Positions 7,657 to 59,668 of a stretch of 64,000 nucleotides of DNA are shown in pieces; within the stretch, counting starts at the first letter, position 1; each line of letters begins with the position of its first letter. The stretch is from Candidatus Omnitrophota bacterium. GTDB lineage: Bacteria; Omnitrophota; Gorgyraeia; Pluralincolimonadales; Pluralincolimonadaceae. The stretch is from the NCBI GenBank assembly GCA_041653595.1, contig JBAZFB010000001.1, positions 68,467 to 132,466 of the forward strand, written 5' to 3'. A program made the position numbers and the translations under genes. The notes below the pieces were generated by a model. The model did no database searches. It saw only the letters and a list, made by a program, of their open reading frames with translations, and was not told the origin of the DNA.

Positions 7657-7681
7657 AACCACGCCCTCCTTTCCAACCGCC

Positions 7682-7733: not shown

Positions 7734-7749
7734 TTCCCGTCGGCAAAAA

Positions 7750-7784: not shown

Positions 7785-8025
7785 CTTTTGCTTCTACTTG
7801 CCCTTTTTGCGAAAAGAACTTCGCCCTTTTAGGGTAGGTTACTTCTTGGGTTTCTTTTTTCCGCAACCGCATGATCCGCACATTGCATTCTCTCCTCTGG
7901 TTCGCTTCGCTCACCATCCCTCGAACTATCCCGAACGCTGCCGAGGGATTTTTAGCCCTTACGTGTCCGGCTATAATTATACCATCTTTTTTCAATTCCG
8001 CAATAATATCTTTTCAGCGGCGCTT

Positions 8026-14836: not shown

Positions 14837-14986
14837 TACTATCTCCTGGTTATATTAAGGAAGGGACTGCGGGAGGCTGCCGATATAGCCGGCTTCCAAC
14901 CCGCGAAGATTATACCATAAAAATCAAATACGGCAATTAAAATTATTTGCTTTTTTGTAGGAAATTTTATTGTTATAATGCTGTCT

Positions 14987-32494: not shown

Positions 32495-35400
32495 TCATTC
32501 TTTATTTTCTTTAGAGCTCTTAATAATATCCTTTATCTCGATATCTAAATTTGAAGTTATGAAGCTTTCTTCTTGTTTAAAGATCTCTTTTTTATTTAAT
32601 CCTTTATCCTTATCAAATGCTTTCCTTAAAATTTCGAGCGCTTTCTTTTTGTCGTTCTTCCTTAAATATGATACGCTCAATCCCAATGCATCGGTTGCCT
32701 TAAACTTGCCTTTCCCGAGAACCTTCTGGAAGATTTCGATGGCTTCGTCATATTTACCATTCTCGTAATACGCCCATCCAAGGGTTCCAAGATGATCATG
32801 ATCTTCGGGACCTAATTCCACACCCTTCTTTGCCCAATAAATCGTCTTGTCTCTTTCAGAGTTTTCTATTATAGAATCCCATGCGAGGTTATTGTAAGCG
32901 CACCCAAGGGTCGAACCATATTCAATGGCTTTCTTATAATAGAAAATAGCTTGTTTGAAATCATCTTTTTTATCGAATAAAAATCCCAAGCGTTCATAAG
33001 TATAATGATATTCGGGATTTATGCTTTCTTCAAGTTTGAATTCTCTTATTGCATCATCGACTTTATCCTTCTTCTTATAAGCTAAACCTAAAAAATAATG
33101 GGCTCTTCCAATATCCTCGTCTAATTCCAAGGCTTTTTTGGCGTTATCAATAACTTGTTCAATATTATCTTTTTTATAAAATACGCGGCAAATTTCCACG
33201 CGAAGCTCTGGGCTATCGGGCATGATTTCCAGGCCCTTTTTCAATAACTGAAGCGCTTTATCTACTTCATTTACATCAAAATACAATTCGTTCAACCAAA
33301 CATAAGCATCTGTGTATTTATTATCCAACTCAAGGCATTTAAGATATGACTGCTCTGCCTCTTTAAACATTTTTTTATTTCCATAAATTACTGCCAGATT
33401 ATAATAAACTGCTGGGGATTTAGGAGACAACGTCTGAGCCTTGAGGGTTTCCTTAAGCGCCTTATCATATTCATGATTATGGGAATACCTTGAACCGAGA
33501 CTCAAGTGAGCCAATGCAAAATAAGGGGCTATATTAAGGGCCTTCTCGAGCAGGACCTTCGTTTCATCATAAATTTTTCTATCATTTTTATTGCTACCTA
33601 TAAGAGCCATATATTTATCCCAATAGCAGTCGGCATCAAAAGGGTCAAGCTTTAAAGCCGCGTCATACATATAATCGGCTGTATCTATCCGGCCCGCAGG
33701 GAAAAAATTTGCTAATTCTTTATACGCAAGAGAAAAATTAGGGTCTTTTTTTAGAGCCAACCTCAGATAGATCAATCCTTCAAAAAAAGATGTGACATTT
33801 CTTTTTGAAATATTTTCTCCCTGATAAGCCCCCTTGGAATATAATAAAAAACAGCTAAAATCAGGAAGATAGAATTCTTCTATTCGCCTTCTCTCTAAAT
33901 CTGAAATTGATACTTCCAAATTTTTAACTATTTGAAAAATCATCTTTTGGCTCGCCTTCAGAAAGACATCTTTTCTACACTTAATCTCATCTAAAACTAT
34001 GGTTGCATTCCTCTTTTTATCAAAGATTGAAACGCTCAGGATCAAACTATTGTTATCGCTGCTTTCCTGAGAAACCCTGCCTATCAAAAGGTATTCTACT
34101 CCCCGTTTTTCACATGCTGCGGTCAGTTCCTTTCCGTTTTTTAAAAAACAATTTTTCTCGCCAGGTTCGCTGTAATAATCTAATATTGAAAACTTTCTTA
34201 TGCACATTAAATTTCTTCTAAATACCCGCTGTAAACCGATATTGATCGGCTGATGTTCCTCCGCTAAGCTGCCTACATCAAAATAGGAAATGCCTATTCG
34301 CATAGGATCCTTTATAATAATATCTTCCGGAGATATTACGGGTAAGACAGCCTCAGGATACTTTCGTAAATTCGGCCGCGGCAGTTTCGATAATTCTTCG
34401 AAAGTCATACCGGCAGTTCCTTTATAATCAAGTACCTCAAAGCGGTCAAAATAACAACTCCCGAGCATCTGGTAATTATACAAGGCGAGCGCCTTAAAAC
34501 TTAAATCCGTATCGGAAAACTTTATATGTCCGGCATCGACAAAGCCAATTTGATTCACTGTAACATCTACCGGCAGCCAAGTACCATTATCATAAATTTC
34601 GTTCCACATATGATACCCAAAATAGCCGTGGCCATAAGAGATCCCGAGAACGCCCTTTGCGGGTATGCCTAATGAACGGCAAAGAGCGCAAAATAAGACC
34701 GCATATTCCGAACAATCCCCTTCCTTGATCTTCAAGACATCTCTAGCGGAATAAAATCCTTTCTTTTCCGTAAATTTAATCTCGCCATTGATCCATTTGG
34801 AGATCTTGGTGACTTTTGTAATTATGTTCTCGTCGGCGCCTGCTATCTCCAAGGCGAGGGATCGAATTGCGTTATCGTTAATCTCGGCGTAAACGGAATC
34901 CGCTAAATATTTATTTGTATTTTCTCTCCCGATCTTAAATATCCTGTCGGGAATTTTTATATTATTCTCTACGATGACTTCGTAATTATTATTTATAAAA
35001 CTGACTTTTTGACGGGGACTTCTTAGGATCAAATTGTTCCTGATGAGCGTAAAAGAACGGCCCTTTACTTTCAGATAATAAAGTTTGTTCAAATCCACCA
35101 TATAAGTAGCAACCGGTATCGAAGACCTCTTGGATGCCGGCAATATCGCATCTTTTTCGACCTCAGATTCAGGGATTACTTTATATAACACATTTATATT
35201 TTCATATTGACCGCTAATTAATTTACCGTCTTCATCGATTATAAATCGTTGATTTAAATTATCAAAAGTTTTGCTGCTGACTGCAATTTCAAAAAAAACC
35301 TTCTGTTTGCCCCCGATGGGTGACTCGAACTTTCTGACAACCGTAAGTTTTTCTTTTATGACCTCAAGAAAATCCTCTTCAAAGACGTCAAATTCATAGG

Positions 35401-35857
35401 ACCCCACCCCCAGATTTCTATCAGCCACTAATTTCATTAAAATGACCGAGGGATACACTTTGCTGTTTGTTGACACCTTGCAATGCGTAACGTAACCATT
35501 TCTGGTAATATCGATTGCAATACCCTCTTTTGTCGCTCTCGCTTCAGCATAGAGTTCGCCTTCATACTCATGATTCTTTAATTCTAAATGGTCTAAGCTT
35601 AAATCCTTATTGACAAAAACGATAATTTCCCCTGTTTTTTTTGAATCGGGCGCATCCGCAGTCGGATAGTCATAGCTCAGTATCCTCACTTCGTGCCCTT
35701 CTTTATCCTCGCGGGGCAAAATCCGGTAGTTAAAATAGCCTGTCTTCTTGTTTTCAAAAAATATATTGCCCCAATATTCTTCATTGATTGCATCAGCCAA
35801 TGTGTATCCGGTGGACATGGATATTATCAAAATTGTAAAGAAAAATTTAAATTTCAT
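32495..35857 (-). CDS. Large secreted transglutaminase-like cysteine-protease-fold protein with C-terminal TPR repeats
   Basis: Signal peptide. TGase-like core (EGDCSEYAVLF...GYHMWNEIYDNGTWLPVD; Cys-His-Asp). More than 10 TPR motifs in the C-terminal half. Strongly AT-rich codon usage. Confidence 0.7.
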   Translation of the reverse strand: MKFKFFFTILIISMSTGYTLADAINEEYWGNIFFENKKTGYFNYRILPREDKEGHEVRILSYDYPTADAPDSKKTGEIIVFVNKDLSLDHLELKNHEYEGELYAEARATKEGIAIDITRNGYVTHCKVSTNSKVYPSVILMKLVADRNLGVGSYEFDVFEEDFLEVIKEKLTVVRKFESPIGGKQKVFFEIAVSSKTFDNLNQRFIIDEDGKLISGQYENINVLYKVIPESEVEKDAILPASKRSSIPVATYMVDLNKLYYLKVKGRSFTLIRNNLILRSPRQKVSFINNNYEVIVENNIKIPDRIFKIGRENTNKYLADSVYAEINDNAIRSLALEIAGADENIITKVTKISKWINGEIKFTEKKGFYSARDVLKIKEGDCSEYAVLFCALCRSLGIPAKGVLGISYGHGYFGYHMWNEIYDNGTWLPVDVTVNQIGFVDAGHIKFSDTDLSFKALALYNYQMLGSCYFDRFEVLDYKGTAGMTFEELSKLPRPNLRKYPEAVLPVISPEDIIIKDPMRIGISYFDVGSLAEEHQPINIGLQRVFRRNLMCIRKFSILDYYSEPGEKNCFLKNGKELTAACEKRGVEYLLIGRVSQESSDNNSLILSVSIFDKKRNATIVLDEIKCRKDVFLKASQKMIFQIVKNLEVSISDLERRRIEEFYLPDFSCFLLYSKGAYQGENISKRNVTSFFEGLIYLRLALKKDPNFSLAYKELANFFPAGRIDTADYMYDAALKLDPFDADCYWDKYMALIGSNKNDRKIYDETKVLLEKALNIAPYFALAHLSLGSRYSHNHEYDKALKETLKAQTLSPKSPAVYYNLAVIYGNKKMFKEAEQSYLKCLELDNKYTDAYVWLNELYFDVNEVDKALQLLKKGLEIMPDSPELRVEICRVFYKKDNIEQVIDNAKKALELDEDIGRAHYFLGLAYKKKDKVDDAIREFKLEESINPEYHYTYERLGFLFDKKDDFKQAIFYYKKAIEYGSTLGCAYNNLAWDSIIENSERDKTIYWAKKGVELGPEDHDHLGTLGWAYYENGKYDEAIEIFQKVLGKGKFKATDALGLSVSYLRKNDKKKALEILRKAFDKDKGLNKKEIFKQEESFITSNLDIEIKDIIKSSKENKE

Positions 35858-36288
35858 GTATTTTCGTCTTTCTTTTTCATAATAAAAATTTTAGTAACTA
35901 TAATTTTTTGAATGCTGCTTGTATTATTATACCTCATAATTATAAGTATTTAAAGGAGTTAGGCAAAGGTCTTTGATCAATTTGTGGAGGGTAAATCAGT
36001 TTGGCTTTTGATTATCTATCAGTATCGGGTGGCGCACTCTGGGAAATAAGAATATTATCCTTGATAAGCTACAATTTTAGCAGAAATCCCTGGGGACAGT
36101 TCTGGGATTAAATACAAAAACGTCCCCTTACTTCCCTAAAAAGCCAAGTCGCTGGTTGGAAAGCCATTTTCTAGGTGACTTTGGGATACTGTGTATAATT
36201 TTTGCACCGTGCGCTCTTGAGGCAGGATAAAACTACTTGTCAATTAAGTTAATTCCGGACCCTATTTTTTCTCTGTTCTTTTTCATTT

Positions 36289-36630
36289 TCATGGCATTGT
36301 AACATAAAAGCCATGTTTTATTAAAATCGGCGCTAAAATTCGTAATGCAAGGTGAAAAAATACAAGCATTAAAACGCCTATCTGGAATAAGGTTGCTAAC
36401 ATACTTAAAATAATCGAGACTAATTTGTTTATCTTTGAAAAATTTTTAAATAAATAACCTGCCGTGCCAACAAAAATCAGAATACTTACCAAAAGTATTA
36501 CCGGTAACCAAAATTTTTGAAATATCTTACCACTACCTCCTTGACCCGCTAATACATCAGCTATGAAAACTATCGAACTCAAAAATAGGTAAGCTACATA
36601 CCCAATAATGCATAAAATAAATGATTGCAT
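36289..36630 (-). CDS. Small polytopic membrane protein, candidate immunity protein for the upstream RHS toxin
   Basis: 113 aa with 3-4 TM segments. GGGGGA RBS. Starts 18 nt after the toxin stop. AT-rich. Confidence 0.45.
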   Translation of the reverse strand: MQSFILCIIGYVAYLFLSSIVFIADVLAGQGGSGKIFQKFWLPVILLVSILIFVGTAGYLFKNFSKINKLVSIILSMLATLFQIGVLMLVFFHLALRILAPILIKHGFYVTMP

Positions 36631-36647
36631 AATTATTCCCCCTTTTC

Positions 36648-39600
36648 TTAATATAAAGGAATTGGTTTATCTGCACCGGGTTGCCACCCGGGCAAATTTG
36701 GTATATTGGAAACACCGGCATCTTCTAAAATTCCATAAGTATAGGAGTTACTATTATAAAAGGGATCAATTGGCCAAGGTGTAGCATCATATGATAAATC
36801 ATTTTCATATTTTCCTGCTGAATTCAAGATATCTTTTATCAAATTTGTATCTGAACGTTTATCTAATATCCTCTGGCTATTTTTTAATTTTTCAGGTCTG
36901 TCAGCGGAGCTGCAAGGCGTAGCTACTAATTTACCATCTTTAGGATTGGCACTTAAGGTAAGTTCCAATTCGCCCTTTGAATTCTTATAGAAACCTGAGT
37001 TGGCAAAATCACTTGGATTATCGGGATGAAGTATAATTACCGTGTGGCTCCCCATTCCTAATACAGGCCTTGCTCCTATTGCTACATATAATCCCCACGG
37101 ATCATACTTATTAATGGGATCGTTATTGAGGTAGACGTAAAGGTTGGGTCCGTCTATCATCTCCAACGGGTCTTTGGTGATGAAGCGCCCTATTAAGGGG
37201 TTGTAATACCTGGCGCCGAAGAAGACAAGCCCTGTCTGGGGAGTGTATTCCTTGGTCTTGTAGGCGTATTTGGATTCCAAAGAGCCGGACTGATAGATTA
37301 TGTTGCCGAACGCATCGTAATCGTAGGTCTGGATGACAACGCCACTGCTGTTGGTTATCTGGTTGACGTTGCCTAAGTTGGAGTCATGATAATAGAGCGT
37401 ATTCGTCCAGTCGAAACTGCTTACAAGCCCTCCTATCCCTCCGGGGGCTGAAGGCAACTTGGAGTACATTATCAGGATATTATTTGAGGGGTCTCTTTCA
37501 ATGAGCGGGGCAAGGCCGTCATAGAGGTATTTTACCACGTTGCCGCCTATGTTGGTAGTGATACGTCTGCCGTCGCCTGAATAGGCGTAGTAGGTATTTA
37601 TATAGGGGGTTATTATGCCCCAGGGCCTGTTCTCGTAGTCGTAGTAGTAATAGGTGGTGCCGGTCCTACTGTTGGTTTCAACAACGAGATTGCCGTTGTT
37701 GTCGTAGGAGTAGCTTATCGACTCATACGGTAAAATCCTTGAAGTAATCTGGTTGGCGGCGTTATATGAGTTGGATATGGGGAGGCCGTCTCTTGTTTCT
37801 GAAGTGCGGTTTCCGGCATTGTCATAGGTGTAATTTCTGGTGTATGGGTATGAGCCTGTTTTGTCCTCATGGGTGAGGCGCCCAGCGTCGTTGTAGATAA
37901 AGTTATAGGTGTTGCCGAAGTTGTTGCTAATAGTTGTTATCTTACCGAGACTGTTGTAGTCATAGTGGTAACTCGAGAGGGTGTTCTGGGAACCATCTTT
38001 AACCGTTAAGGTGTTTACCCTGTCGTTGTCGTAGTAGAGCCATTCGGTGTAGGTGGAGTTGGGATAGTTCATTCTTGTCAGGCGGTTAGCGGTGTCGTAG
38101 TAAAAGGTTGTAGTCTGGCTCTGGGAGTTGGTCAGGGTATAGGGCAGGTTGTTGGCGTAGTAGGCGTAAGAGAAGTAACCTGCCGGAGTGGTCATGGATA
38201 TCCTGTTACCCGCGTAGTCATAGAAGTAGGTTATGGTGTCGTTGGCCTCGGGGCCGTCTACGGACGAGAGCCATGTCCTTGAGTTGTAGGTGTAGGTTGT
38301 CGCGCCATAATAATCGGTCATGGTAGCTGTTTTGCCATATCTGTTGTATAAATATACCACAGAGTTCGAGTCCGGGTATGAAACGGAATAAAGCTTGCCC
38401 GCTAAGTCATAGGTATAGGTGATGGTGTTGCCGTTAGCGTCTGTCTTGGTCTTGAGCTTACCGTTCTTGTAGTAGGTGCAGGTTGTTGTTTTGTTTAAAG
38501 GGTCAGTCTCGGTTAAGACGACGTTGACGTTGGGGTCATAGGTGTAAGTGGTGGTGTGGCCGTTCTGGTCTACCACGGAGGTAAGGTTACCTACCTCATC
38601 ATAATTGTAGGTCGTAGTATTTCCCAAGCCGTCTGCGACTGTCTTTATGCGGTAATAGCTATCAAAGGTGCGGCTTTCGACGGCTAAAAGCGTGCTGTCC
38701 GGACGGTATTTCTTCATGGTAGTGTAGTTTTTGCTGTCATTGAGTAATGGCGGGGAGCTTTCATAAGTGAAGATAGTTATCTCTTGGGTAGGGTCGGTTA
38801 CTTTAGTCAGGCGATTGTAGTGGTCGTTGTATTCGTAGGTGGTCTCAACAGGATTACCGTTGACGTAGCGGATGAGTTTCGTCATATTACCGAACGCGTC
38901 GTATTCATATTGCGTTACTTTGGTTCCAGGATCGGTTATGCTTACGCACTGGTTGAGTTCATTGTAAACATAGGTTGTTGTATGATTATTCGCGTCCCTG
39001 AAGGTCAAGAGATTGGAGTTTTTGTCGTAAGTATATTCTTCATAGCTTGAGTCGGGATAGGTCTTTCTCGTGAGCCGGCCTAAACCGTCATATTCGTAAC
39101 TTGTGGCAATCGGATCACTGCCGCTGTTATCGCCGTATTTTGAGGAAGTCATACGACCAAGTGTATCGTACGTGTACTGAATATAATTGCCTTCCCCATC
39201 CGTTTCCTTGGTGGTATTTCCGTATGTGTCGTAGGTATAATCCGTGGCTATGCCTTCGGGATCGATTATCTTCGTAAGACATCCGTACTGGTCGTACTGT
39301 TTTTCTATCGTCGCCGTTCCCTGATTATTGGGAGAAGGTGTGTATCTATGCCTTAGATTGCCATTTGAATCGTAGTCATATGTCCACGCCCTCTCTTTGG
39401 GATCTGTTATCGAAGTGATATAATGAAAAGTGGGGTCATAAGTAAAATACGCGGTATAACCTTCGTCGTTGTCGAGCTGCAAGGCGCTGCCAAAACGGTC
39501 TTGCACCCAGCCGCAGCCTTTGCCGTTCTCATCCGTAACCGAATCGCGAATATAACTATCATCGAAAGTGTAATTTGTTACGCCGTTATTTGAATCCGTA

Positions 39601-42600
39601 ATGCGAGTAATCTTTCCCTTCACGTATTCAAAGATGCTGGTTCTGTTGCGCATGTCGGTTATTGTGGTAATGCCTGTTTCAAAGAGATATTCATAAGTCG
39701 CCTGATTTCCTTTTGCGTCAGTAACGCGGTCGCAGACGTCGCTTATGTTCGAAGGGTCCCTGATATAATGATATTCCGTCCTGTTTCCCTCTGAGTCGAT
39801 ATACGCAGTTACGTTATGGATATTGCTTGCGTCATTATATTCGTATGTTTCCGAATAATTTTCGGGGCCTGTCACCGAAATTAGGTTTCCATTGTCATAA
39901 TAATAATTATAGGTAACCGAAAGCGAACCGGCAACACCTGTCACCGTCGAAATCCGGCCGTTACTATAGGTAAAGTCAATATGCCTGTCCCAATTTTCGT
40001 ATATCATATACAAAATGGGGCCGCCATAAATATACGAAAGACGGTTTCCGTTTAAGTCCTCAATATATAAAACACGACGGGTACCTTGATAGTTATCGAA
40101 ATGATATCTCTGTTTCCCGTACTTAATGGTCCAGCGCATCCAGTCATATGTCCCGTCACCATTATTGATTAGCTCCGAGCCGTCGCATTCAGGCCCGTAG
40201 TAGGAGCCGGCGCCGTTATACTCGTAACTAAATATCGTTCCATCCGGCCCGGTTATGATGACTTTTTCGGGATCCTGCCCTTGAGCCGGGATTACCTGCA
40301 TTTTGACATCGTGCGCAAGCGCCCAACCAAAGCCTATTTTGGAATCAACCTCACTGCTCGATGAATAGGTCCTTGTAAGATTCAGGCTGATGCCGTGTTT
40401 TCTCCCCCTTCCTAGTATGAATATATCTGTCTTCGGAATGATCACCTGGCCGCCTGTTATGGCTATTGGGTCAACGGGGGTGTCGCACTGTGTCGACGCG
40501 CGTTGCCCGCTTCCCATATATGTCATTCCTAACCCGCCGTCCGCATGCGGGTTATGCCCCGTCATCGAATCGTAAAGGTTAACACCCATCAAGTAATCCT
40601 CAGGAAGGCTTGCCTCCAATTTGCCATACTCTACTTCCCATTCGCCATTCGGAAGAACACCGGGATCGTTCTTAGTTATGCCTCCCTCGGATGACCGGCG
40701 ATTACCGCCCTTAATGGCTAACAGCTCGTCGGCAGCTAATTCTTTAACGTCAGGACGAGCCTTGACCGCCAGTATCTGTCCCTTCCATCTGGCCGGAAGC
40801 TCTTTATAGCTAATGAATTCGCTTGATAAATTATCTCTAACCAATATGCCGGCTGATCTTATACTCTCAAGGAATGCGTAATGACCGCTGTCTATAAACA
40901 GTATCGCTTCCCCGTTGTATTCCTTCAGTTTTTCTGCATCAATCTTAAATGCTGATACTTTCAAACCGTTATTTTTGGCCGCCTTTATAAGACCAAGTAA
41001 AGTGGTCCCGTCTTTATCCGTTCCGGCGGATTTAGCTATCTCTTTCGGCGTAGATTTTATACCGTAAGTCTTAAGCAATAAATTCAATGCATATGGGCCG
41101 CAAGCGTTATTTAGCGATGTCGCCGCTGACTGTTTGCCCAATCTTTCTATCAGCTTCAGCACCCCTTTGGCCTCGGCTGTCAGGAAATGATACGGATAAT
41201 TGGACACTAGCCGCTCAAAAGTTTCTTTGGCAAGCGGATAATTCCGCTGGTAATACCGGACCTTTCCTATCCAGAATAGAGCTTCCGCGGCATAGTAGGT
41301 GTCGCTGTTTAACGCTGTTTCATATTCCTTAAGGGCTTTTTCATAATCTTTGCGTTCAAAATATATGTGGCCTATCTCTATATGAAGCGGAGCCACAAAT
41401 TTACCCTCATCTATCTTGCTCTGCGCGTAAGCTATCGCCTCATCCGCCCCGTAATATATGACCTTACCCGTCATAGGATCTCTTTTCTTCTTCTCGCGTA
41501 ACGCTTGGACGATCTTAATATCGTCTCCTTGCGACTTAAAATATTCTATCGCCTTGTCGAATGACCTGAGCTGCCAATATATGTCCCCCAAAGCGTCCAG
41601 GTCGTTTGCTGTGTTAAAATATTTGATTGCCTGGTTAAACTGCTTTCTTTTTAGGGCCATCCTTCCCAATCCGGACATATCGTTGGCATCAGTAAAATAC
41701 TTCTCGGACTTTACGTAATCGCCAATTTCGCCGTAGAGAAAACCGAGGCCGGAAATATCATTAGCCTTTTGAAATAGTTCCAACGCTTTGTCGAATTTCT
41801 TGTCCTTAAGTTGAGTGAGACCTAATCCCGAGAGGTCGTTGGCGGCTGTAAAACAATTCTCCGCCTCCTTGAAATCACCCGCTCCCAGATAAACGTGACC
41901 TAACAACGAAAGATCATTCGCATTCTTGGCATATTGCGCGGCTCTTGCATAATCTTTCTGCACGCAATAGGTAAACCCTATGCCCGAAGGGTCGTTCGCT
42001 TTGGTAAAACTATCCAGCGCTCCCTTATAATTATGCCCCTTAAGATACGCATAGCCTAAGGCGGACGGGTCGTTTGCCTGTTTCGCGTATGATAGAGCGG
42101 CGGAATAGCTATTCATACCGTTATAGGCGACACTTAAGCCGGATTTGTCGTTTGCCTGGCTAAAAGAGCTGATAGCTTTGTCGTATTGCCTCTTGCCGCA
42201 GTAGGCATGGCCTAAGGCAGATAGATCGTTTGCCGCCAAGGCATATTTTATCGCTTCGTCGAATTGTTTCTTTCCTGAATAAGCAAGGCTTATCCCGGAG
42301 AGATCATTTGCCTGCTTAAAATATTTTAAAGCGCTGTCAAAATCCCTTTTGCCGCAGTAGGCATGGCCTATCCCCGAATTGTCCTTGTTAGAAGCGAACT
42401 GAGTAAGCGCCTCGTCGTATCTTCTTTCAGCCAAAAGGACAAGGCCGAGGCCCCCTTTGTCCCCTGCCTGGCTAAACCATCCCCGCGCTTCGTCTATCTT
42501 ATTTTCTCCCAGAGCCGCCAGGCCCATCCCCGAATAATCATTCGCCTGCCTGAAATATTCTCTTGCCTTGCTAAAATCTCTTTTTCCGCAGTAAGCGAGG

Positions 42601-42923
42601 CCTATCCCCGAGTAATCCTTCTTCTGCTCAAAGTGTCTTATTGCTTCATCATATTGGCGTTTTCCGCAATAGGCCATCCCCATCCCGGAAAGATCATTTG
42701 CTTTTTCAAAACTTTCCTTCGCAATGTCGTAACACCTCATCCCCAGATAAGCTATCCCCGCGCCGGAATAGTTATTCTTTTTTAGATATATTTCCAGCGC
42801 TCCTTTATAGTCGCCTTGCTCGATAGCCCGGAAGGCGATAACATCATCGGCAGATTCGAAACCCAGTATAAATAACGAACCCAATATCAACGCCGCGGCC
42901 ACTAAAACTATTTTCCTTTTCAT
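36648..42923 (-). CDS. Sec-secreted RHS/YD-repeat polymorphic toxin with an N-terminal 26-aa repeat array and an internal C39-like peptidase domain
   Basis: Probable start MKRKIVLV at 42923 (AAGGAG-6nt-ATG). Signal peptide. About 16 copies of ANDxSGxGxAYCGKRxYDxAIxxFxQ. C39 motifs NNACGPYAL and GHYAFL. Many YD repeats (YEYDAFGN, YTYDTLGR, YEYDGLGRLT). RHS core end ...NKYDPWGLY followed by a ~165-aa unrecognised C-terminal domain. Confidence 0.8.
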   Translation of the reverse strand: MKRKIVLVAAALILGSLFILGFESADDVIAFRAIEQGDYKGALEIYLKKNNYSGAGIAYLGMRCYDIAKESFEKANDLSGMGMAYCGKRQYDEAIRHFEQKKDYSGIGLAYCGKRDFSKAREYFRQANDYSGMGLAALGENKIDEARGWFSQAGDKGGLGLVLLAERRYDEALTQFASNKDNSGIGHAYCGKRDFDSALKYFKQANDLSGISLAYSGKKQFDEAIKYALAANDLSALGHAYCGKRQYDKAISSFSQANDKSGLSVAYNGMNSYSAALSYAKQANDPSALGYAYLKGHNYKGALDSFTKANDPSGIGFTYCVQKDYARAAQYAKNANDLSLLGHVYLGAGDFKEAENCFTAANDLSGLGLTQLKDKKFDKALELFQKANDISGLGFLYGEIGDYVKSEKYFTDANDMSGLGRMALKRKQFNQAIKYFNTANDLDALGDIYWQLRSFDKAIEYFKSQGDDIKIVQALREKKKRDPMTGKVIYYGADEAIAYAQSKIDEGKFVAPLHIEIGHIYFERKDYEKALKEYETALNSDTYYAAEALFWIGKVRYYQRNYPLAKETFERLVSNYPYHFLTAEAKGVLKLIERLGKQSAATSLNNACGPYALNLLLKTYGIKSTPKEIAKSAGTDKDGTTLLGLIKAAKNNGLKVSAFKIDAEKLKEYNGEAILFIDSGHYAFLESIRSAGILVRDNLSSEFISYKELPARWKGQILAVKARPDVKELAADELLAIKGGNRRSSEGGITKNDPGVLPNGEWEVEYGKLEASLPEDYLMGVNLYDSMTGHNPHADGGLGMTYMGSGQRASTQCDTPVDPIAITGGQVIIPKTDIFILGRGRKHGISLNLTRTYSSSSEVDSKIGFGWALAHDVKMQVIPAQGQDPEKVIITGPDGTIFSYEYNGAGSYYGPECDGSELINNGDGTYDWMRWTIKYGKQRYHFDNYQGTRRVLYIEDLNGNRLSYIYGGPILYMIYENWDRHIDFTYSNGRISTVTGVAGSLSVTYNYYYDNGNLISVTGPENYSETYEYNDASNIHNVTAYIDSEGNRTEYHYIRDPSNISDVCDRVTDAKGNQATYEYLFETGITTITDMRNRTSIFEYVKGKITRITDSNNGVTNYTFDDSYIRDSVTDENGKGCGWVQDRFGSALQLDNDEGYTAYFTYDPTFHYITSITDPKERAWTYDYDSNGNLRHRYTPSPNNQGTATIEKQYDQYGCLTKIIDPEGIATDYTYDTYGNTTKETDGEGNYIQYTYDTLGRMTSSKYGDNSGSDPIATSYEYDGLGRLTRKTYPDSSYEEYTYDKNSNLLTFRDANNHTTTYVYNELNQCVSITDPGTKVTQYEYDAFGNMTKLIRYVNGNPVETTYEYNDHYNRLTKVTDPTQEITIFTYESSPPLLNDSKNYTTMKKYRPDSTLLAVESRTFDSYYRIKTVADGLGNTTTYNYDEVGNLTSVVDQNGHTTTYTYDPNVNVVLTETDPLNKTTTCTYYKNGKLKTKTDANGNTITYTYDLAGKLYSVSYPDSNSVVYLYNRYGKTATMTDYYGATTYTYNSRTWLSSVDGPEANDTITYFYDYAGNRISMTTPAGYFSYAYYANNLPYTLTNSQSQTTTFYYDTANRLTRMNYPNSTYTEWLYYDNDRVNTLTVKDGSQNTLSSYHYDYNSLGKITTISNNFGNTYNFIYNDAGRLTHEDKTGSYPYTRNYTYDNAGNRTSETRDGLPISNSYNAANQITSRILPYESISYSYDNNGNLVVETNSRTGTTYYYYDYENRPWGIITPYINTYYAYSGDGRRITTNIGGNVVKYLYDGLAPLIERDPSNNILIMYSKLPSAPGGIGGLVSSFDWTNTLYYHDSNLGNVNQITNSSGVVIQTYDYDAFGNIIYQSGSLESKYAYKTKEYTPQTGLVFFGARYYNPLIGRFITKDPLEMIDGPNLYVYLNNDPINKYDPWGLYVAIGARPVLGMGSHTVIILHPDNPSDFANSGFYKNSKGELELTLSANPKDGKLVATPCSSADRPEKLKNSQRILDKRSDTNLIKDILNSAGKYENDLSYDATPWPIDPFYNSNSYTYGILEDAGVSNIPNLPGWQPGADKPIPLY
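41480..42790 (-). repeat. Tandem ~78-bp coding repeats (26-aa half-TPR-like unit) in the N-terminal region of the RHS protein
   Basis: Approximately 16 consecutive 26-aa units with consensus ANDLSGLGxAYCGKRxYDxAIxYFxQ, read from the translation. Confidence 0.6.
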
Positions 42924-42939
42924 CACGCTCTCCTTCTTT

Positions 42940-44571
42940 TTATTGGAGCGTCTTGCCAATGAATAACAATATTACCGCCAGAATGATCAGAGGAGTTATT
43001 GCCAAGAACCTGACAAATCTATTCTCAAAGCCGCTATTTAGAATCACTACCCCTATTGCAGTGCCTGCGGCGAAAGACAAAAACCAGATATTCCGTGAAG
43101 TTAAGCCGATGGTTAAAAAGAGTCCCGCGAAAACACATTCTATAATCACGGCTATCTTGCTGTTAGCAAGGCTGACGGAGTTATCGGCCGTGACGGGAAA
43201 ATCGGCTTTTTTGCTGACAAGATAAGCTAACGCGGCAATAGAGGAATTCACCTGCGTAGCATAGAACATGAACGTATACATGGCAATATAGCGAAATCTC
43301 TTTACGGGATGATGAATCATTTCCAAAATGGCCGGCAGTATTGGTGCGACAATGGTCAGGATAAGCATGGAAAAGAAATCCCATCTCCAAAAAAGGTTGC
43401 CCGAGATCCCGACCAATGTCCCAACGAAAGTATCATTGAAGGCAAGCGGCATTTTAAACATTGGGCCTTGGAATTGGAAATGGTAAAAATAGAACGGCAG
43501 GATTATCCCTACCGACAAAAGAAGCGCTAAAAACGGAAGGCCTAACAACAGGCTCTGAGCTGAAACGATGATGTCGAATTTTTCAATCCAGCTTATATTC
43601 CTGCTTTTGAGGAAATCCGGGTAGAATTTAAAAAGACATTCCGCCGTTCCCCTTATCCACTTTTCATTTCTTTTCCTATACTGGCGGTAGGTTGAAGGAA
43701 AATCCTCCATACAGGTTACGTCTTTTGCGTATACGCCGTAGTATCCCTTCTCCTTTATCTTCATAGAATACGCGAGGTCCTCTGTCGCCACCTCGGGGAA
43801 ACCGCCGATCGCCCTTAAAACATCGAGGCGCATTAACGCCCCGTGCCCGTAGAACATAACAAATCCATATTTATTTTTGGTACTCAGGTAATGGTCGCAA
43901 TGGAGTTCGATCTGATAACCGAGGCCTTGCGCGAAAGTTGATTTTTGATTCGAATTAAATTCCTGGCGCGATTGAACGAAAGCAACACGCGAATCACTAA
44001 AATACGGAAACAGTTTAATTATATAGTCGCTAGGTAATAGCGTATCGGCGTCAGATACGCTGAAATACTCGAAGTTCCCTATTTTACTCAATCCGTAGTT
44101 TAAATTACCCGCTTTATACCCGATCCTTTCCGGGCGCCGTATTACACTTATTGCCTTAGAATATCTGGCTACAAATTCGTCTATTCTCTCTTTGTATTCT
44201 CTGTTGGTGCTGTCATCCAAAATAAAGGTACGGAAATTGTCGTAGCCCTGAGCGAGACAAGTTAAGACCGCCTCTTCTTTAAAGTCATTGCAGGTGGTAT
44301 AGAGCAATGCGACCGCGGGAGCCTTTTCCTGATTTTGCCGAACGATATTATAGCCCGGCGTAGATTTGATATATGAGAATAGAATTATTACAAGGTGATA
44401 AAATGCATAAAACCAAAAAATATTAAGTAAGATACTAAAACATGCTACGGCAATTTTAGCAAAGATATTTTCTGGACCAACAACAAGGGCTAACACGCGG
44501 GGGCTAAAATAAAAAGCGGCGCATAGCCAGCAAAAGATCATTGTGCCGAACATTACAGGGTTCTTTTTCAT
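42940..44571 (-). CDS. Family-2 glycosyltransferase, processive polysaccharide synthase type (cellulose-synthase-like)
   Basis: N-terminal TMs. D, DxD (SDADTL) and Q-x-x-R-W-like (QYRKRNEKWIRG) motifs, then C-terminal TMs. The stop is 16 nt upstream of the RHS start. Confidence 0.7.
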   Translation of the reverse strand: MKKNPVMFGTMIFCWLCAAFYFSPRVLALVVGPENIFAKIAVACFSILLNIFWFYAFYHLVIILFSYIKSTPGYNIVRQNQEKAPAVALLYTTCNDFKEEAVLTCLAQGYDNFRTFILDDSTNREYKERIDEFVARYSKAISVIRRPERIGYKAGNLNYGLSKIGNFEYFSVSDADTLLPSDYIIKLFPYFSDSRVAFVQSRQEFNSNQKSTFAQGLGYQIELHCDHYLSTKNKYGFVMFYGHGALMRLDVLRAIGGFPEVATEDLAYSMKIKEKGYYGVYAKDVTCMEDFPSTYRQYRKRNEKWIRGTAECLFKFYPDFLKSRNISWIEKFDIIVSAQSLLLGLPFLALLLSVGIILPFYFYHFQFQGPMFKMPLAFNDTFVGTLVGISGNLFWRWDFFSMLILTIVAPILPAILEMIHHPVKRFRYIAMYTFMFYATQVNSSIAALAYLVSKKADFPVTADNSVSLANSKIAVIIECVFAGLFLTIGLTSRNIWFLSFAAGTAIGVVILNSGFENRFVRFLAITPLIILAVILLFIGKTLQ

Positions 44572-44612
44572 CTTAATTAGGGTTCGAAAGGTGTCGAAAA
44601 ATTAAAACAAAA

Positions 44613-44636
44613 AACGGCGATTAGAAAATCGCCGTT
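44613..44636 (-). terminator. Rho-independent terminator (AACGGCGATT-agaa-AATCGCCGTT) with a U-tract on the minus strand
   Basis: Perfect 10-bp stem followed on the minus strand by TTTTTTGTTTTAATTTTT. Confidence 0.55.
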
Positions 44637-44769
44637 ACGGAATTAATTTGGTACTCTAAGCGGGTAAAACTCCATCGGAATTTCTCCTTAAAAGAGCTTT
44701 CGCCGGAAGAAAAAAGGAAATCTATTTTATCTCTTAATTAAAATGGCCACTCCTTAATATGATTACGTA

Positions 44770-44796
44770 GGGCGGCACTTTTATCAAGTGCCGCCC
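44770..44796 (-). terminator. GC-rich hairpin immediately after the stop of the giant GH gene
   Basis: GGGCGGCACTT-ttatc-AAGTGCCGCCC is a perfect 11-bp stem with no strong U-tract. Confidence 0.4.
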
Positions 44797-44813
44797 CAAT
44801 GTGGTTTAAGTCT

Positions 44814-47800
44814 CTAAAACGACCAGCGGATGGAGTCTATGTAGAATGTAGTGGCGGATTCCGCGGTGATCTTGAACGGGCAGTAGACTTGGCTCAATGT
44901 AGCTCCCGAGAAGTCGCTTATCGGTATGGAGACTTCCTGCCACGACCCGCCGCTCGACGAGATATACTTCGTATAGGTATACCCCGCAGGCGCCTCTATC
45001 TCCACCTTTAAGGTCGTTGAACTCTTGACCCAGAACTTAAGGTAACCGTTGGCATACGTCGACAGGTCTACTGTGCCGCTCGTATGGAAAACACCCCATC
45101 CCGCCCACGCGGTGCTTATCGTCTGGAAGCATTTTGTCCCTTCAGGCGGGGTTTCGCCGGTATAATCACCGTTCCAACTGCCGAAGCCCCAGGTATAGAT
45201 ACTGCTGCCCTGCGGTATCCCGGAATCGGAGTAGACGCTGTAAGCGGTGCCGACGGTGATCTTCGTTTCGGGTTCGTAGGGCTCTCCTGTTGCGGTAAAC
45301 CTGAAGGTATCGTCCATGCCGATCCTCTCCTCATACGGCTCAACGCCTTCCCTCTTATGGTCGAAGAAGTAAGCGCCCCACATGTAGTTGCTGCCGTAAG
45401 GGGTATTTTCGGGAACCTCTATCTCGAAGCTTTCGTCTCCACTTCCGTCCTCGATAATAAAGTCCTCGCTAGCGTAAGTTTCGCCCGTATAGACATCCTG
45501 CAGGAATATCCGCAGGGTCAACGGGAAGGTCACCGCATACGGCTTCCATGCGGTTATCGTGACTATCGTGTCCAGGCCTTCCCAGACCACCGGTACTTCA
45601 ACCGTAGTGTCCGGATTGAAGTCCGTCGGGAAGTTCTCGTCCTCGACCTTCAATCGCGGCGCCCAGTATAACGAGGTCGGTACCTCATATTTATCCGACG
45701 TCTCGGTAAACCAGGTTATCCAGTTATACTTTCCGCCGCTCGCCGAATCCTCCAAGTCCGTATCGGCCGGGTCGTAGTCGGGAACCAGCGCGTATTCCGG
45801 GACATACGGACTCCTGAAATCATCCAGGAGGCCATTTACCGACTTGGTCTGCAGCCAGTCTTCCAGCCTAAACTGGGCTGCCGACGGATAGCCGGCCAAT
45901 GTCATCTTCTTTAGCAAGGTGATGATATCGGTGGCAAGATCTCCGTCGGTCAGGGTTATCCTGTAATATTTACAGGCGGTGTCTAAGTTTATCGTCGGGT
46001 TGTAATCGCCGGCCCAGTTGCCCGAGGTGTAAATATTGGTCCACGAGCTTCTGTCCGGGGACTTCTCGACGGTCAACTGGCTCCATGTGCCCGCGAAACT
46101 AAAGTTCATCGTCAACGTCGGAGATGTCGCTGAGGAGATGTCTTTAAATGCCATGGACAACTGCGGCCTTGTGCCGCTCGTGTTGGCGTTGCTGATCCAT
46201 GTAGTGGTTGTCTCGGTAAGCCAGCTGTTGGGGTCGGCCTTGCCGTCGAACATCGGGCTGCCGCCGTAGACCTCATTTGTAAGGCCGTCGCCGTTATCGC
46301 CGTCTTCCTTAAAACCGAAGTTGAGTTTAAGCGTATCATTCCTCGTGTTGTATGCGATCCAGTTATCGAACGTCCTGCCGCCGGTTGAAAGGAATGTCGC
46401 GCCGGCGTGGTAGAGGCCGTAGCCGGAGATGCTGGACTCGTAACCCGGGTCGTTAAACGAGGTGTAGAAGCCCATATGGTCCGTCCACGGGTCGGCCGAA
46501 TCCCACGGATAGGTATAGATCGTCCAATAGATGTTATCGTCGCCGCTCATGGTCGTATCCGGGATCTCGAATTGGAGGTTCTCGGTCCCGTTGGGATCTA
46601 TCGTCCATATCTCCTTTTCGGCTAACAGGAAATCGCCGTCTTCTTCATTCGGCGTGGCATATTTAAGCTGGATCCTCATCTTATAGATCTCTCTTGTCGT
46701 CCAATCGAAGACGTTCTGAGAGACCTGGCCGAATTCGTCCGTCAACTGGTCGTCGGTGTCGACGCCGTAGTTGAAGACGAAGGTCTTTCCTTTCTTCTCG
46801 CCGGTATCCGATGTGGCGAAGTAGGCGTCGTCGAAATAATACGTTCCCTGGTTCCATTCGTATAATTCGATTGAGGCAACCCTTTCCCAGTCTATCCCCG
46901 CTGTCTGCGAAACGGGCCATGATATCAAAGTCCACTCGTTCTGGACGGCCGACATCGTCGACCAGACCGCCGAGCTTAGATTGCCCCATTTGTCCTTGAA
47001 TTTGATCTGTAACGAATTGCTGCCTTGCGTGTCATATACCCAGACGTAGAAATCGGTCATAGTCGCCAGATTCATATATCCGATAGGCGCGGCGATGTTA
47101 ATACCGAGCGTGCCGCCGCCTGATGCGGATATCATCTTGACCGAACGGGTGCCGCTATGGACGATCGTCGTCTCGAACGCGGGATTAGACTGCCAGGCGT
47201 CATAGTAGTAATCGCCGGGGGTCGAATTGCCGGGCTCGAGGTTCTGGAAGGAAACGTTCTCCTTGGTCAGTAGGTTGCTTATCAAAGCAGGTGCGGAAGA
47301 GGCCGCGTTCTTTATATCGGCGATCTTCGTGCCTGTCGTAACCGTCGTCCAGGAGATCGCGGAAGCGCCCGAAGCCGTCGCTATATTCTGGCCGTTGGAG
47401 TAATCCTTGGTGATGTAATGAGTGTTGTCGGTAACCTGCAGGTTCAACAGGTCGCTTAAGGTCGTATACCCTGAATCGACGCCAAAGGCGCTCTCGATCC
47501 TTCCGGTGCCCGATGAGCCGTCCGGCTGCTTGATGCCGACGCCGCCGTCCGTGGCCACGACCGTAAACTGTCCCGCCTGCAAATACGCCTTTATGTTGTA
47601 GCATTCGTCGTTATTCATGACATAGACGCTCGGCAGGACCACGATCGGGAAGAATTCTTTCAAGTAACCCCAATCGAGGTTAAGCAGGTTGCCGTCGAGG
47701 CCTCTCTCGTTATCGTCGATGAAATAGTAACCCAACACGGGTTCCCATACGCCCAGCTGTGAGGCCTTTGCGCCCACTCCTATCTTTCCGCTGGCGAGGC

Positions 47801-50800
47801 CGGTGTTGGTAAACCCGCCTTGATACTCATTATCAAGATAGACCTGGAAGTTCGGTCCCGCCGCGATAACTTTCAATGTATGGAAGGTGCCGGCCGAGAG
47901 GGGGTTTGCGAGGTTGGCTACATTACCTCCGAACTCCTGGCCATTTACCCTTCCGCCGTACTTCACCCTCCAGAGCCCATAGTTGTTGTAGGGCTTGACG
48001 TAGTAGAAGTTGTTGTTATCCTGATAACGGAAGACAAGGTACGCCTCCGCGAAGTACGGGTCCATTGTGACGTACTTGAATTTCATCTCGGCGGTATAGT
48101 CTGTCCATGCCGAGTTTCCCGCAACCGAGATATTATAGCTCTGGCTCATTCGGTCGATGCTGTACTCATAGCTCGGCACCGTCCAGCGGCTCGAACCTTC
48201 CGCCACCGTCCAGTTGTTCGCGTTGCCGCTGCTGAAATCATCCGAGAACAGGGTATTGCCGCCGCTCGTTACCACGACGTCATCGAAATCGGTGACCGCC
48301 GGGTTGGAATGGACGTAGCCTAAGTCCTCAAGCCAATCGCAGACCTGGTTTACCTTATTGTAATGGGTTGAATACAGCGCCTGCGTCTTGGCGGACCTTA
48401 CGACCGCTATGCGCTGCGGGAAGGAAGTCTCCCTGCTGATAGGCGTATTCTCCCATGATTGATATTCATACAGGTCCTCCCACTTGAAATTGACGGAGTA
48501 GCTCTGTCCTTTGTTTAACGCGGTCGGAAGAGACGTGGTGGGAGCCGCTCCCCATTCCAATTGCGTCTTTTGATACGACTCCGCCACCTTTACGCTCGAC
48601 TCCTCCAGCCAGGCATGAATGACGTAATTTCCTCCGTCTGGAGTCGATATATAGTCGCTGTCGGCCTTGTTCGCATCCGGTATCCAGAGCCACAGCGTCT
48701 GTTCGCCTGCTCCGGTGACGGTGGTATTCATCGACTCATAGATCTCGTTGGGGGTGTTATCCCCGTTGTCGCCGTCTTCCTGGAAAGCGACGTATAATGT
48801 CAGATCCGATGCCGCCAGGGTATCATACCTTACCTTGACCTGATACGACTTATCCCCCATGGGGTGGACGACAGCCGGCGCGTCAAGTATCGTAGCCTTC
48901 TTTGAAGGAGAACCGCTGTAAGCCTTTATCAGTTCATGGCCGTCGGGTACCAGCGTCAAATTAAACGTCCCGTCGCTGTTCTCTTCTATAACCCCGCCTG
49001 TGGTCAGATTCTCGACTGTCCTCCCGCTGATCAGGCTCGTCGTTATCGTCACGCTCTCGTTCTGGTCGTTTCTGTAATTCTTGGCCGATATCAGGATGGA
49101 GCCGTCGCTCCCGGTCCTGTAACAGACCTGGACATATTGAGAGCCCGTGACATTCAAACTCGGCTGTATGCCGAAGCCGGTCAAGAATATAGCCTTCATC
49201 CAATCGTAATGCTTTGCCCACGGGATTATATCCTGTTTGCCGTCGCCGTCTCCGTCCGGGCTTATGTCTCCCAGGCTGAACGTCGTTATAGCGGCCTTGG
49301 ATGTCCCGTTGTCCTTTATCACAAGCGCAGGGTTGCCGTTTGAATGGGTGGCATAGACCGTGCCTGTCGTAGCGGTGATCATATTGCTGTATTTCCAGAC
49401 GCGGAAGACATCCTGTCTTGATGCGGTCAACGGCGAAAGCGCCTGGGTGACCGTCGTGGTGATGGGCGTAAAATTAATCCCATATTGGCCGTTTCTTGCC
49501 GGGTCATCATAACCGGAGGTATTCGCGGCATTGACGCCGAAGATATTGCCCATCTCTGTTGTGAAGTCGCCTAATGAGTTTACGTGGTAGTCCTGCATTC
49601 CGGGCAGGTCCGCGTCCGCGTAGATGTTGACGCCCGCGGGAATTATCTTTGTGCGGATATAATTCATATCCCCCGGGTAGGTCCGCATATTCCTCGGCAG
49701 TATTATAGCCGCGTAAGAACTGTAATCGGCCGGCGTGCCGTTATTCTTCTCGAAACTCTGGAACGCAATCTGGCTTCCAGATACATAGGTCGCCTGATCT
49801 AAATAATAGACGCCCTGATTCCATTCATAGAGCTCGACCGATGCGATCCTGTCTTTGTTGAGATTGGGAACGCTTGGATACTGCGTCATGTCCCAGTTTA
49901 TCTGTGTCCACTGGTTCTGCACCGAATTGTTCGAAGACCACAGGCAATAGCCGTCGCCTCCCGACCCTCCGTCGCCTTCCGCGTCTCTTAAGCGCAGTTG
50001 GATAGAGTTATTCCCCTGCGTATCATAGACCCAGACAGAGAAACCGGTAGCGCTGCTTAAATCCATTACCTGAGCGCTGTTGGCCGGGTATACCGCAACC
50101 GTCCCGCCGCCGCTTCCGGCAGTTATCTTCAGGGATCTCGTCCCGGCATAAACCGTCGAAAGGTTTATCACGGGATCAGACTGCCAGATATCCTTAAAAT
50201 ATTTCGAAGCCAAAAGAGCGGTCCTGTCGATAAATGCGGGGTTCAGCCCCAGCCTCGTCAACGGGCCGTAGAGCTGCTGCATGTTGCATTCATAACGGTT
50301 ATACATCCCGTCGGTCGCATCCGACCAGTAGAACGCCACATCCGGGGTGGGGTCGGTCGAATTTCCTATAAGCCCTTCGACGTCTATCTGCTCCATCAGA
50401 TTATAGGTATCCCTTACGACCCAGAACGAAGGCTTGATCCTTCTGTCGGCATATACGATGCCGAAACCTTTTTCCCTGTCTGTAATATAGGGCCTGTCAT
50501 TCCAGGTGAAGACGTGGACGCCTATGGCACCCGCTTCCAATTCCTCCCATAAGGAATTTCTTATCAGCGGTCCCTGGTTCAGTTCGTTCATCCCGGAATA
50601 CATTGTCTCGGAACTCGTGAAACCGGTCTCGGTGCAGAGAACGGGCAGACCCGTCCTCCATTTGGCATTTATCACTCCCCACCGGCCTGTCTGGGACTCA
50701 TGCCCCAACAGGTCCCACGGATAATTATTTATAGACCAGAAATCAAGCGGAGCGCCTATATCCCTGCAGGCCTTCGCGATCTTGGCCGTATCCTCTGCGT

Positions 50801-59583: not shown

Positions 59584-59668
59584 GGACGGTTCTTGAGCTA
59601 ATCGGAAAAGTGTCCCCCATCCAAATACTAAGGGGACACTTTTAGCTTTGGCTCAAGAACCGTCCCTC
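59581..59668. repeat. REP doublet: two inverted copies of the same REP-like element found around the RAYT gene
   Basis: TAGGGACGGTTCTTGAGCTAATCGGAAAAGTGTCCCCC at 59581-59618 and its inverted copy at 59632-59668. The first copy begins at the MFS stop codon; the second ends 2 nt after the GH116-like stop. Confidence 0.7.

Follow-up and report, generated by a model that had tools for sequence, protein, structure and literature searches.

An exchangeable toxin tip, a built-in C39 peptidase and a glycosyltransferase partner in a candidate Rhs polymorphic toxin operon of Candidatus Omnitrophota

Described Rhs systems and the Omnitrophota operon

Rhs toxins form a major class of bacterial weapons, and little is understood of the processing and deployment of the many that have no type VI secretion system (T6SS) or Tc partners. 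The subject of this work is a three-gene operon found in a 64,000-nt stretch of the Candidatus Omnitrophota contig JBAZFB010000001.1; this whole stretch is called the window, and all coordinates are positions within it unless another locus is named. The operon lies at 36289-44571 on the minus strand and runs from a glycosyltransferase family 2 (GT2) synthase through a 2091-aa Rhs protein to a small membrane protein of 113 aa (Table 1). The last 146 residues of the Rhs protein and the 113-aa protein were found to make up an exchangeable toxin/immunity cassette. With moderate confidence, we take the locus as a whole to be a polymorphic toxin operon whose precursor releases itself and carries a membrane-acting tip.

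The WapA-WapI system of Bacillus subtilis shares with this operon an N-terminal export signal (a putative one here), a YD shell, a DPxGL core, a variable tip, an adjacent immunity gene and exchange of tips. WapA tips are nucleases that act in the cytoplasm and have soluble immunity proteins, whereas the Omnitrophota tips pair with integral membrane proteins. A further difference from WapA is that the Omnitrophota pre-toxin region has an array of 26-aa repeats, tetratricopeptide repeats (TPRs) and a C39 peptidase, and that a GT2 synthase is a conserved partner. The T6SS Rhs effectors and the TcB/TcC cages have in common with the present protein an Rhs cage around a self-cleaved C-terminal toxin, the self-cleavage being a prediction in our case. 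Membrane immunity proteins are also known for some tips of T6SS Rhs effectors, such as pore-forming toxins. Unlike the T6SS and Tc proteins, however, the Omnitrophota Rhs protein has no PAAR, VgrG-binding, SpvB or TcdB domain in Pfam or NCBIfam, and no T6SS genes were seen among the window open reading frames (ORFs) scanned. As for CdiA/CdiB, neither a two-partner secretion domain nor a CdiB partner was found in the Rhs protein or its neighbours.

The 2091-aa protein is an Rhs cage protein. RHS_repeat (PF05593) was matched with an E-value of 2.6e-65 and TIGR01643 with 4e-39. The Rhs-associated core ends in DPWGL (residues 1941-1945), the predicted site of the C-terminal aspartyl self-cleavage of the Rhs family. 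These matches, together with that to TIGR03696, bear out the long YD/RHS shell ending in YDPWGL that had been described in a first-pass annotation, made by a model from the sequence. The NCBI annotation of the same protein (MFA5338624.1) reads only "cysteine peptidase family C39 domain-containing protein", while the 543-aa protein is labelled a glycosyltransferase and the 113-aa protein a hypothetical protein.

Exchange, predicted fold and target of the toxin tip

The cassette was delimited by comparison with related loci. A contig from another sample (L047) is 94% identical to the window at the DNA level from 43952 to 37137, where homology stops. The L047 Rhs protein is 97-98% identical through the repeats and shell, and ends in an unrelated tip, Gly-rich and hydrophobic, which is followed by a 196-aa ORF with six hydrophobic segments. 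A metagenome locus with the same architecture (L043) is 60-79% identical per segment up to DPWGL, where an unrelated tip begins; an Rce1/CPBP-like membrane protein of 342 aa is encoded next, and an orphan Rhs tail after it. The window-type tip and its 113-aa partner also move as a pair. In the Omnitrophota locus L007 they sit on a 331-aa orphan Rhs tail, and in L001 a homologous tip gene (cut at the contig end) is again accompanied by the partner; in both loci a TcB/TcC-like Rhs gene adjoins the orphan copy as a separate gene. The L001 and L007 tips are 57-60% identical to that of the window. It is because tip and immunity gene are replaced together, in the 94%-identical L047 as well as in L043, that we read the system as a polymorphic toxin. 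The check for cassette swapping in related genomes that the first-pass annotation had proposed was thus answered by these two loci, each with an unrelated tip and a different membrane protein. The flanking genome has a GC content of about 0.53 and the Rhs shell one of 0.47, but the tip is at 0.37 and the immunity gene at 0.31, and these low values of the cassette fit import of the toxin/immunity pair.

Several other features of these loci were recorded. In L043, a second complete Rhs gene (4397-8641 of that locus) lies upstream of the GT2 gene, and the CPBP-like gene is followed by an orphan Rhs tail of 275 aa and a 128-aa ORF (19449-20721), giving a multi-cassette arrangement. In L007, genes for a phage-type integrase and a replication protein O homologue (13980-16176) lie just past the Rhs genes, and the opposite flank carries type IV pilus or type II secretion system (T2SS)-like genes. 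The Rhs gene of L001 has genes for T2SS E, F and G as neighbours.

The tip had no Pfam or NCBIfam match, and the profile of its family found nothing meaningful among PDB sequences. At 146 aa it is shorter than the roughly 165 aa first given for it, and it can be matched to a known fold, which had been thought not possible. An AlphaFold2 model with a predicted local distance difference test (pLDDT) value of 95 matched papain-like hydrolases, namely YiiX (2if6, score 6.9), CLN5 (6r99, 6.8), the T6SS effector TseH (6v98, 6.7), PPPDE/DeSI (2wp7, 6.7), Aichivirus 2A (7zv6, 6.6), a cysteine peptidase (3kw0, 5.9), the MARTX RID acyltransferase (5xn7, 5.2) and PLAAT4 (7zot, 5.0). The permuted form of this fold has its His on an early strand and its nucleophile at the N-terminus of a later helix. 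In the model, H1960 lies on strand 2 and S2058 at the N-terminus of the last helix, and these residues would occupy the His and Cys positions of the LRAT and PPPDE enzymes. Because of this placement, the invariant N-S-N in the YNSNS motif is taken to correspond to an NC motif in which Cys has become Ser.

Conservation of the tip was scored over 114 aligned relatives. H1960, N2057 and Y2045 are present in all 114 and D2008 in 107. The cysteine nucleophile of permuted papain-like hydrolases occurs at position 2058 in a single sequence (P0060), the other 113 having Ser. An exhaustive HMMER search returned 207 cluster representatives at E ≤1e-3, in which the domain nearly always closes the protein (the median number of residues beyond it is 5.5), and every one of the 12 full-length members scanned is an Rhs protein; they come from Proteobacteria, Acidobacteriota, Paenibacillus and other phyla. 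The tip thus belongs to a large family of C-terminal tips that has no annotation and whose members, wherever they were checked, are part of Rhs proteins. A relative of 1669 aa (P0085) has seven tandem partial copies at a spacing of about 168 residues, all matching only the second half of the tip domain (query residues 81-132).

The order of His first and nucleophile at the N-terminus of a late helix is shared by the tip with DUF3750 and YiiX/C92, PPPDE/DeSI, LRAT/PLAAT, CLN5 and TseH. The tip differs from these permuted papain-like enzymes in falling below every Pfam threshold and in being a toxin tip with adjacent membrane proteins. In a 2023 survey, DUF3750 is among the papain-like families with a conserved Ser for Cys and a function not known (PMC10318531), and this substitution too is found in the tip. 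DUF3750 (PF12570) gave weak matches in 4 of 37 tip relatives (best E 0.01), and by these profile matches the tip is treated as a distant DUF3750-like relative, not as a member.

No Pfam or NCBIfam match was found for the 113-aa protein either. Its hydropathy profile has 3-4 hydrophobic segments, and it is 53-54% identical to the ORFs directly after the toxin homologues in L001 and L007, in agreement with the initial description of a protein with 3-4 transmembrane segments in the immunity position. Across the family, the next ORF after the tip encodes 88-177 aa with at least two hydrophobic segments in 16 of 35 loci, spread over many phyla, as against at most 7% in a background of ORFs that follow other large ORFs in the same loci. 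The small membrane proteins fall into several unrelated sequence families between which jackhmmer found no link. They are treated as analogous, not homologous, and would fit immunity proteins that evolve fast and have nothing but their location in common. All three tip alleles known for the window's Rhs lineage pair with integral membrane proteins.

The Lipocone toxins are other polymorphic toxins to which a logic of membrane interception was applied (PMC12419801), and by analogy interception of the present toxin would take place at or in the membrane. We favour an acyl hydrolase or acyltransferase activity of the tip, with a membrane lipid or lipid-linked precursor as substrate, because of the lipid-acyl chemistry of CLN5, PLAAT and RID, the Ser/His/Asp-type centre and the nearly all-transmembrane immunity proteins. 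The earlier view of a membrane-acting toxin rather than a nuclease is consistent with the papain-like fold, with the multi-transmembrane neighbours in those 16 of 35 loci and with the three membrane-paired alleles.

The main rival for the target of the toxin is peptidoglycan. On this alternative, the tip would be an amidase or endopeptidase of the NlpC/P60 or TseH-like kind working in the periplasm, and the membrane protein would do no more than keep an inhibitor on the periplasmic side. Peptidoglycan is indeed the substrate of TseH and of the classic NlpC/P60 enzymes, which counts against a lipid substrate. However, most of the best structural matches are His-first permuted enzymes, several of them with acyl or lipid substrates (CLN5, PLAAT4 and RID). 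The proteins encoded downstream consist almost wholly of transmembrane segments joined by very short loops, and so offer little soluble surface with which a periplasmic amidase could be inhibited, and a Ser nucleophile would be better suited to esters than to amides. We consider a peptidoglycan target unlikely, and continue to prefer an acyl-lipid substrate.

The distribution of the cassette also bears on what the toxin is for. Omnitrophota have been reported to be predatory or host-dependent and to have giant C39-bearing surface proteins (bioRxiv 10.1101/2023.11.21.568195), and the Rhs protein has no T6SS-type loading domain. Both points would suit a weapon for predation or host attack by epibiotic cells, in which the GT2 polysaccharide and the repeat array serve for attachment to prey and the membrane protein only guards export. 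Strain-level swaps of tip and immunity gene and orphan cassettes are, however, hallmarks of competition between close relatives, and the toxin family is found with adjacent membrane proteins in many free-living phyla. A predatory role is accordingly judged improbable, and competition by an exchangeable toxin/immunity pair remains our preferred reading.

The C39 peptidase, the double-glycine motif and the synthase partner

Ahead of the Rhs shell lies the C39 peptidase domain, where a direct match to Peptidase_C39 (PF03412) above threshold substantiates the C39-like peptidase domain of the initial description. Its candidate catalytic residues are C608, H681 and D697 (His + 16), all three of which are kept in the homologues from L042 and L043. 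The best solved relatives are LahT (6mpz), PCAT1 (4ry2) and ComA. These enzymes share with the domain the C39 fold family and an Asp at H+16, C608 and H681 align with the Cys and His of LahT, and a substrate-like motif of the form LxxxELxxIxGG fits their leader consensus. In bacteriocin exporters, the C39 domain is fused to an ABC transporter and cuts a short N-terminal leader; here, by contrast, the presumed substrate is the 2091-aa protein that contains the domain, and the site lies downstream of the peptidase.

The presumed site is contained in LAADELLAIKGG, which starts 6 residues past the C39 domain and matches LSxxELxxIxGG, the classical pattern of double-glycine (GG) leaders. It has hydrophobic residues at -4, -7, -12 and -15 and Glu at -8, and a leader motif of this type arises in 0.6% of shuffled copies of the Rhs precursor. 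The block IKGGNRR[SA]SEGGxTKNDP is invariant in three homologues save at the bracketed position and at x, while the C39 domains of the same proteins are only 46-55% identical, so that among these three the GG site is better conserved than the peptidase domain itself. Homologues of this part of the protein were reached via the GT2 gene and a 90% cluster, a word-indexed search with the C39-DUF6531 region having given one weak match.

A natural control is provided by L044, which has a split form of the gene. There, the gene after GT2 encodes a protein of 996 aa, which has a signal peptide, repeats and TPRs and ends before any C39 domain or GG motif, and the next, separate gene has its own signal peptide and starts at DUF6531 and the Rhs shell. 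Because the separate genes of L044 have no C39 and no GG motif, the fused form appears, from the sequence comparison, to be the split form with a protease and a cleavage site added exactly at the junction. From this control, and from the well-conserved GG motif 6 residues after the domain, we infer that the C39 peptidase cuts in cis after G740, which would free the Rhs cage from the N-terminal anchor and scaffold. In the LapA-LapG system, a cysteine protease cuts an N-terminal retention module and thereby releases a large surface protein. The likeness is one of concept, since LapG is a separate C93 enzyme with a di-alanine site, whereas the Omnitrophota protease is a C39 enzyme predicted to act in cis at a double-glycine site. 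In giant Omnitrophota proteins, C39 domains lie N-terminally near signal peptides and have been proposed to cleave these proteins (bioRxiv 10.1101/2023.11.21.568195).

It might instead be argued that the C39 domain does not process its own chain, acting on other GG substrates or as a second effector, and that the GT2 synthase is a functionally unrelated neighbour. C39-like domains are known as toxin tips: a 2012 survey lists C39 in that role (Tox-PL-C39), not as a processing protease of Sec-type polymorphic toxins (PMC3482391). In addition, the protein P0083 has C39 and Rhs without an evident GG leader, and between near-identical strains the C39 segment has diverged to an unusual degree (83% identity, as against 97-98%). 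However, the leader motif is nearly invariant and lies 6 residues after the domain, the split-gene locus drops C39 and motif together, and adjacency to a GT2 gene recurs in L042, L043 and L044 at 53-66% identity. Taken against these observations, the absence of self-processing seems very improbable, and cleavage in cis is retained as the preferred reading. As to the divergence just mentioned, the C39 segments of the window and L047 have 83% protein identity, the flanking repeats, TPRs and shell 97-98%, and the GG-site block 100%. Recombination confined to this patch could be the cause, or selection that diversifies the protease.

The module that would be left behind by such a cut begins with an 18-residue hydrophobic stretch after MKRK. 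It is kept in the L042, L043 and L044 homologues and has no clear AxA site. It may be a Sec signal peptide, as first proposed, or an uncleaved signal anchor. Next come the 26-aa repeats, first estimated at about 16 copies and now counted at exactly that number, which keep an exact 26-residue register over residues 49-464. They gave partial matches to TPR_2, TPR_1 and TPR_7 in Pfam, at about positions 2-27 of the TPR models, and score as shortened TPR-like helical hairpins. A single-sequence AlphaFold2 model of residues 31-800 has two helices of about 10 residues per repeat, at a low pLDDT of 47. Residues 512-580, unlike the units of the array, match full TPR models. No DNA-level tandem repeats were found in 36000-45000, and the array is therefore likely to be old and not recently amplified. 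Repeat numbers vary between loci, a motif count giving 16 in the window and at least 18 each in L043 and L044; those of L044 are spread over the 996 aa.

The 543-aa protein is, by its sequence features, a membrane-embedded GT2 glycosyltransferase of the processive type. It has two N-terminal and five C-terminal hydrophobic segments and the motifs DAD at 174, TED at 263 and RNEKW at 301, the last being a QxxRW variant. It matched Glyco_tranf_2_3 in Pfam (E 6.6e-24), with partial matches to CelA, PgaC and MdoH, and its best solved relative is the BcsA cellulose synthase (E 3e-8). Family, BcsA match, motifs and transmembrane segments all agree with the processive GT2 glycosyltransferase of the first-pass annotation, processivity being judged from sequence. 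In L042, L043 (to which L046 is identical) and L044, the gene just before that of the repeat protein encodes a homologue with 53-66% identity, in L047 it is a near-identical GT2 gene, and in L045 a 36% identical GT2 gene lies beside that of a TPR protein. Because the GT2 gene recurs in L042-L045 and L047, the conserved core is GT2 plus the repeat/TPR protein, with Rhs fused or adjacent, and the linkage is conserved, not accidental. No GT2 or C39 was found by tblastn next to members of the toxin family in other phyla, and the GT2 link therefore belongs to the window's Rhs lineage, not to the toxin family.

A membrane GT2 synthase encoded beside a secreted TPR-rich protein is a feature that the locus shares with BcsA-BcsC, PgaC-PgaA and Pel. 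It is this likeness to the synthase and TPR-scaffold pairs of exopolysaccharide systems that suggests that the repeat array may dock on the synthase or on its product. Unlike its Bcs, Pga and Pel counterparts, the TPR-like protein of the Omnitrophota locus lacks a porin domain and is joined instead to a protease and an Rhs toxin, and its repeats are of 26 rather than 34 residues.

Proposed mechanism, genomic setting and significance

The mechanism that we propose has six steps. The N-terminal hydrophobic segment would carry the Rhs precursor across the cytoplasmic membrane or anchor it there, and the 26-aa TPR-like array and the TPRs would dock on the neighbouring GT2 synthase or its polysaccharide. 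The C39 domain would then cut its own chain after G740, and the Rhs cage (residues 741-2091) would be released from the anchor module. Once the Rhs core had cleaved itself after DPWGL, the tip would stay inside the cage. At the outer face of the target's cytoplasmic membrane, it would work as an acyl hydrolase or acyltransferase of the Ser/His kind, most likely on a phospholipid or a lipid-linked envelope precursor. Finally, the small integral membrane protein would block the toxin at that membrane site in the producer.

Besides the peptidoglycan activity of TseH and the NlpC/P60 enzymes, several observations weigh against this scheme. No outer-membrane export or delivery component was found among the ORFs scanned, and the single-sequence model of the N-terminal module is poor. 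The conservation of the GG site rests on three independent sequences only, and P0083, an independent protein in which this tip is combined with Rhs, C39 and a signal peptide, has no obvious GG leader after its C39 domain. The window tip itself gave no DUF3750 match at E up to 10, and it is mildly acidic (isoelectric point 5.3), with no electrostatic hint of anionic lipid binding.

The scheme can be extended to a T6SS-independent way of deploying Rhs toxins, in which the GT2 synthase and the TPR-like scaffold hold the cage at the envelope or exopolysaccharide, C39 releases it, and the tips, among them the lipid-modifying Ser/His family, are directed at membranes. We put this forward tentatively, as an idea that is doubtful at present.

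The features of the locus are collected in Table 1. The three genes had been described as co-directional and 16-18 nt apart, and the gaps were measured as 16 nt (GT2/Rhs) and 17 nt (Rhs/small ORF). Every domain named in the first-pass annotation was matched when Pfam and NCBIfam models were applied, including GT2, RHS_repeat and Peptidase_C39. With RHS and C39 matches present, no sign of a structural tip and a conserved 113-aa ORF, none of the outcomes that the annotation had listed as counting against it occurred. A promoter scan of the locus gave nothing informative except one terminator-like hairpin, which sits between the GT2 gene and an upstream gene for a 2406-aa protein. No tRNA genes were found in the window.

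Table 1. Positions of the three genes, the parts of the Rhs precursor and other features of the locus in the window
Feature	Coordinates	Strand	Length or residues	Details
Terminator-like hairpin	44613..44636	-		10-bp stem then T run; consensus match only
GT2 synthase	42940..44571	-	543 aa	
Rhs polymorphic toxin precursor (predicted)	36648..42923	-	2091 aa	ATG at 42923 (MKRKIV...), stop at 36648
N-terminal MKRK and hydrophobic segment	42834..42923	-	18-residue hydrophobic segment	sequence, hydropathy
Sixteen 26-residue repeats	41532..42779	-	residues 49-464	consensus ANDxSGxGxAYCGKRxYDxAIxYFxQ
Canonical 34-residue TPRs	41184..41390	-	residues 512-580	best stretches TPR_2, TPR_12, TPR_16 (Pfam)
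C39 cysteine peptidase	40755..41111	-	residues 605-723	PF03412, E 5e-21, 75.3 bits, cutoff 22
Double-glycine leader-like motif	40704..40739	-	residues 729-740	predicted cut after G740
DUF6531, N-terminal entry to Rhs shell	40233..40472	-	residues 818-897	Pfam
YD/RHS repeat shell	37320..40226	-	about residues 900-1868	RHS_repeat in 11 stretches, YD_repeat_2x, partial RHS_core
Rhs-associated core	37089..37319	-	residues 1869-1945	TIGR03696, 1-76 of 76, E 2.5e-20
Recombination breakpoint	37137	.		94% DNA identity to L047 ends, 49 nt before tip
Toxin tip	36651..37088	-	146 aa after DPWGL	predicted permuted papain-like hydrolase; H1960, D2008, S2058
Putative immunity protein	36289..36630	-	113 aa	NCBI WC317_00555

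The block at 32-46 kb has a GC content below that of the housekeeping and carbohydrate-metabolism genes that flank it. Downstream of the immunity gene, at a distance of 431 nt, a gene at 32495-35857 on the minus strand encodes a secreted protein of 1120 aa that has many TPRs and a transglutaminase core; the gene's GC content of 0.37 is that of the toxin cassette, and it has promoter-like sites of its own. In L023, a gammaproteobacterial Rhs protein with the same toxin family has an N-terminal transglutaminase core, from which we suggest that papain-like domains ahead of Rhs shells may be a recurring theme. The upstream gene at 44814-52034, also on the minus strand, encodes the secreted 2406-aa protein, which has CarboxypepD_reg and glycoside hydrolase (GH) 42-like domains in its first 515 residues; the other 1800 or so residues matched nothing in Pfam or NCBIfam, save for a weak hit to Exop_C at the very C-terminus. 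Further upstream, genes for a glycogen debranching enzyme, a GH116 enzyme and a glucoamylase-like enzyme are clustered at 53858-55870 and 59628-63932, and together with the GH42-like giant protein they form a glycan-degrading neighbourhood.

To the Rhs theme, the locus would add a new toxin/immunity family, a predicted release in cis by C39 at a GG site and a conserved polysaccharide-synthase partner. The leads that it offers are a built-in C39 peptidase with its own GG site at the junction of anchor and cage, backed by the natural split-gene control; the synthase partnership, with its unusual 26-residue TPR-like array; and a widespread, unannotated family of Ser-for-Cys papain-like toxins, usually paired with small membrane proteins. 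If the substrate of the tip were identified, the DUF3750-like branch of papain-like enzymes would gain a function, and the locus extends the emerging picture of large C39-bearing surface proteins in Omnitrophota.

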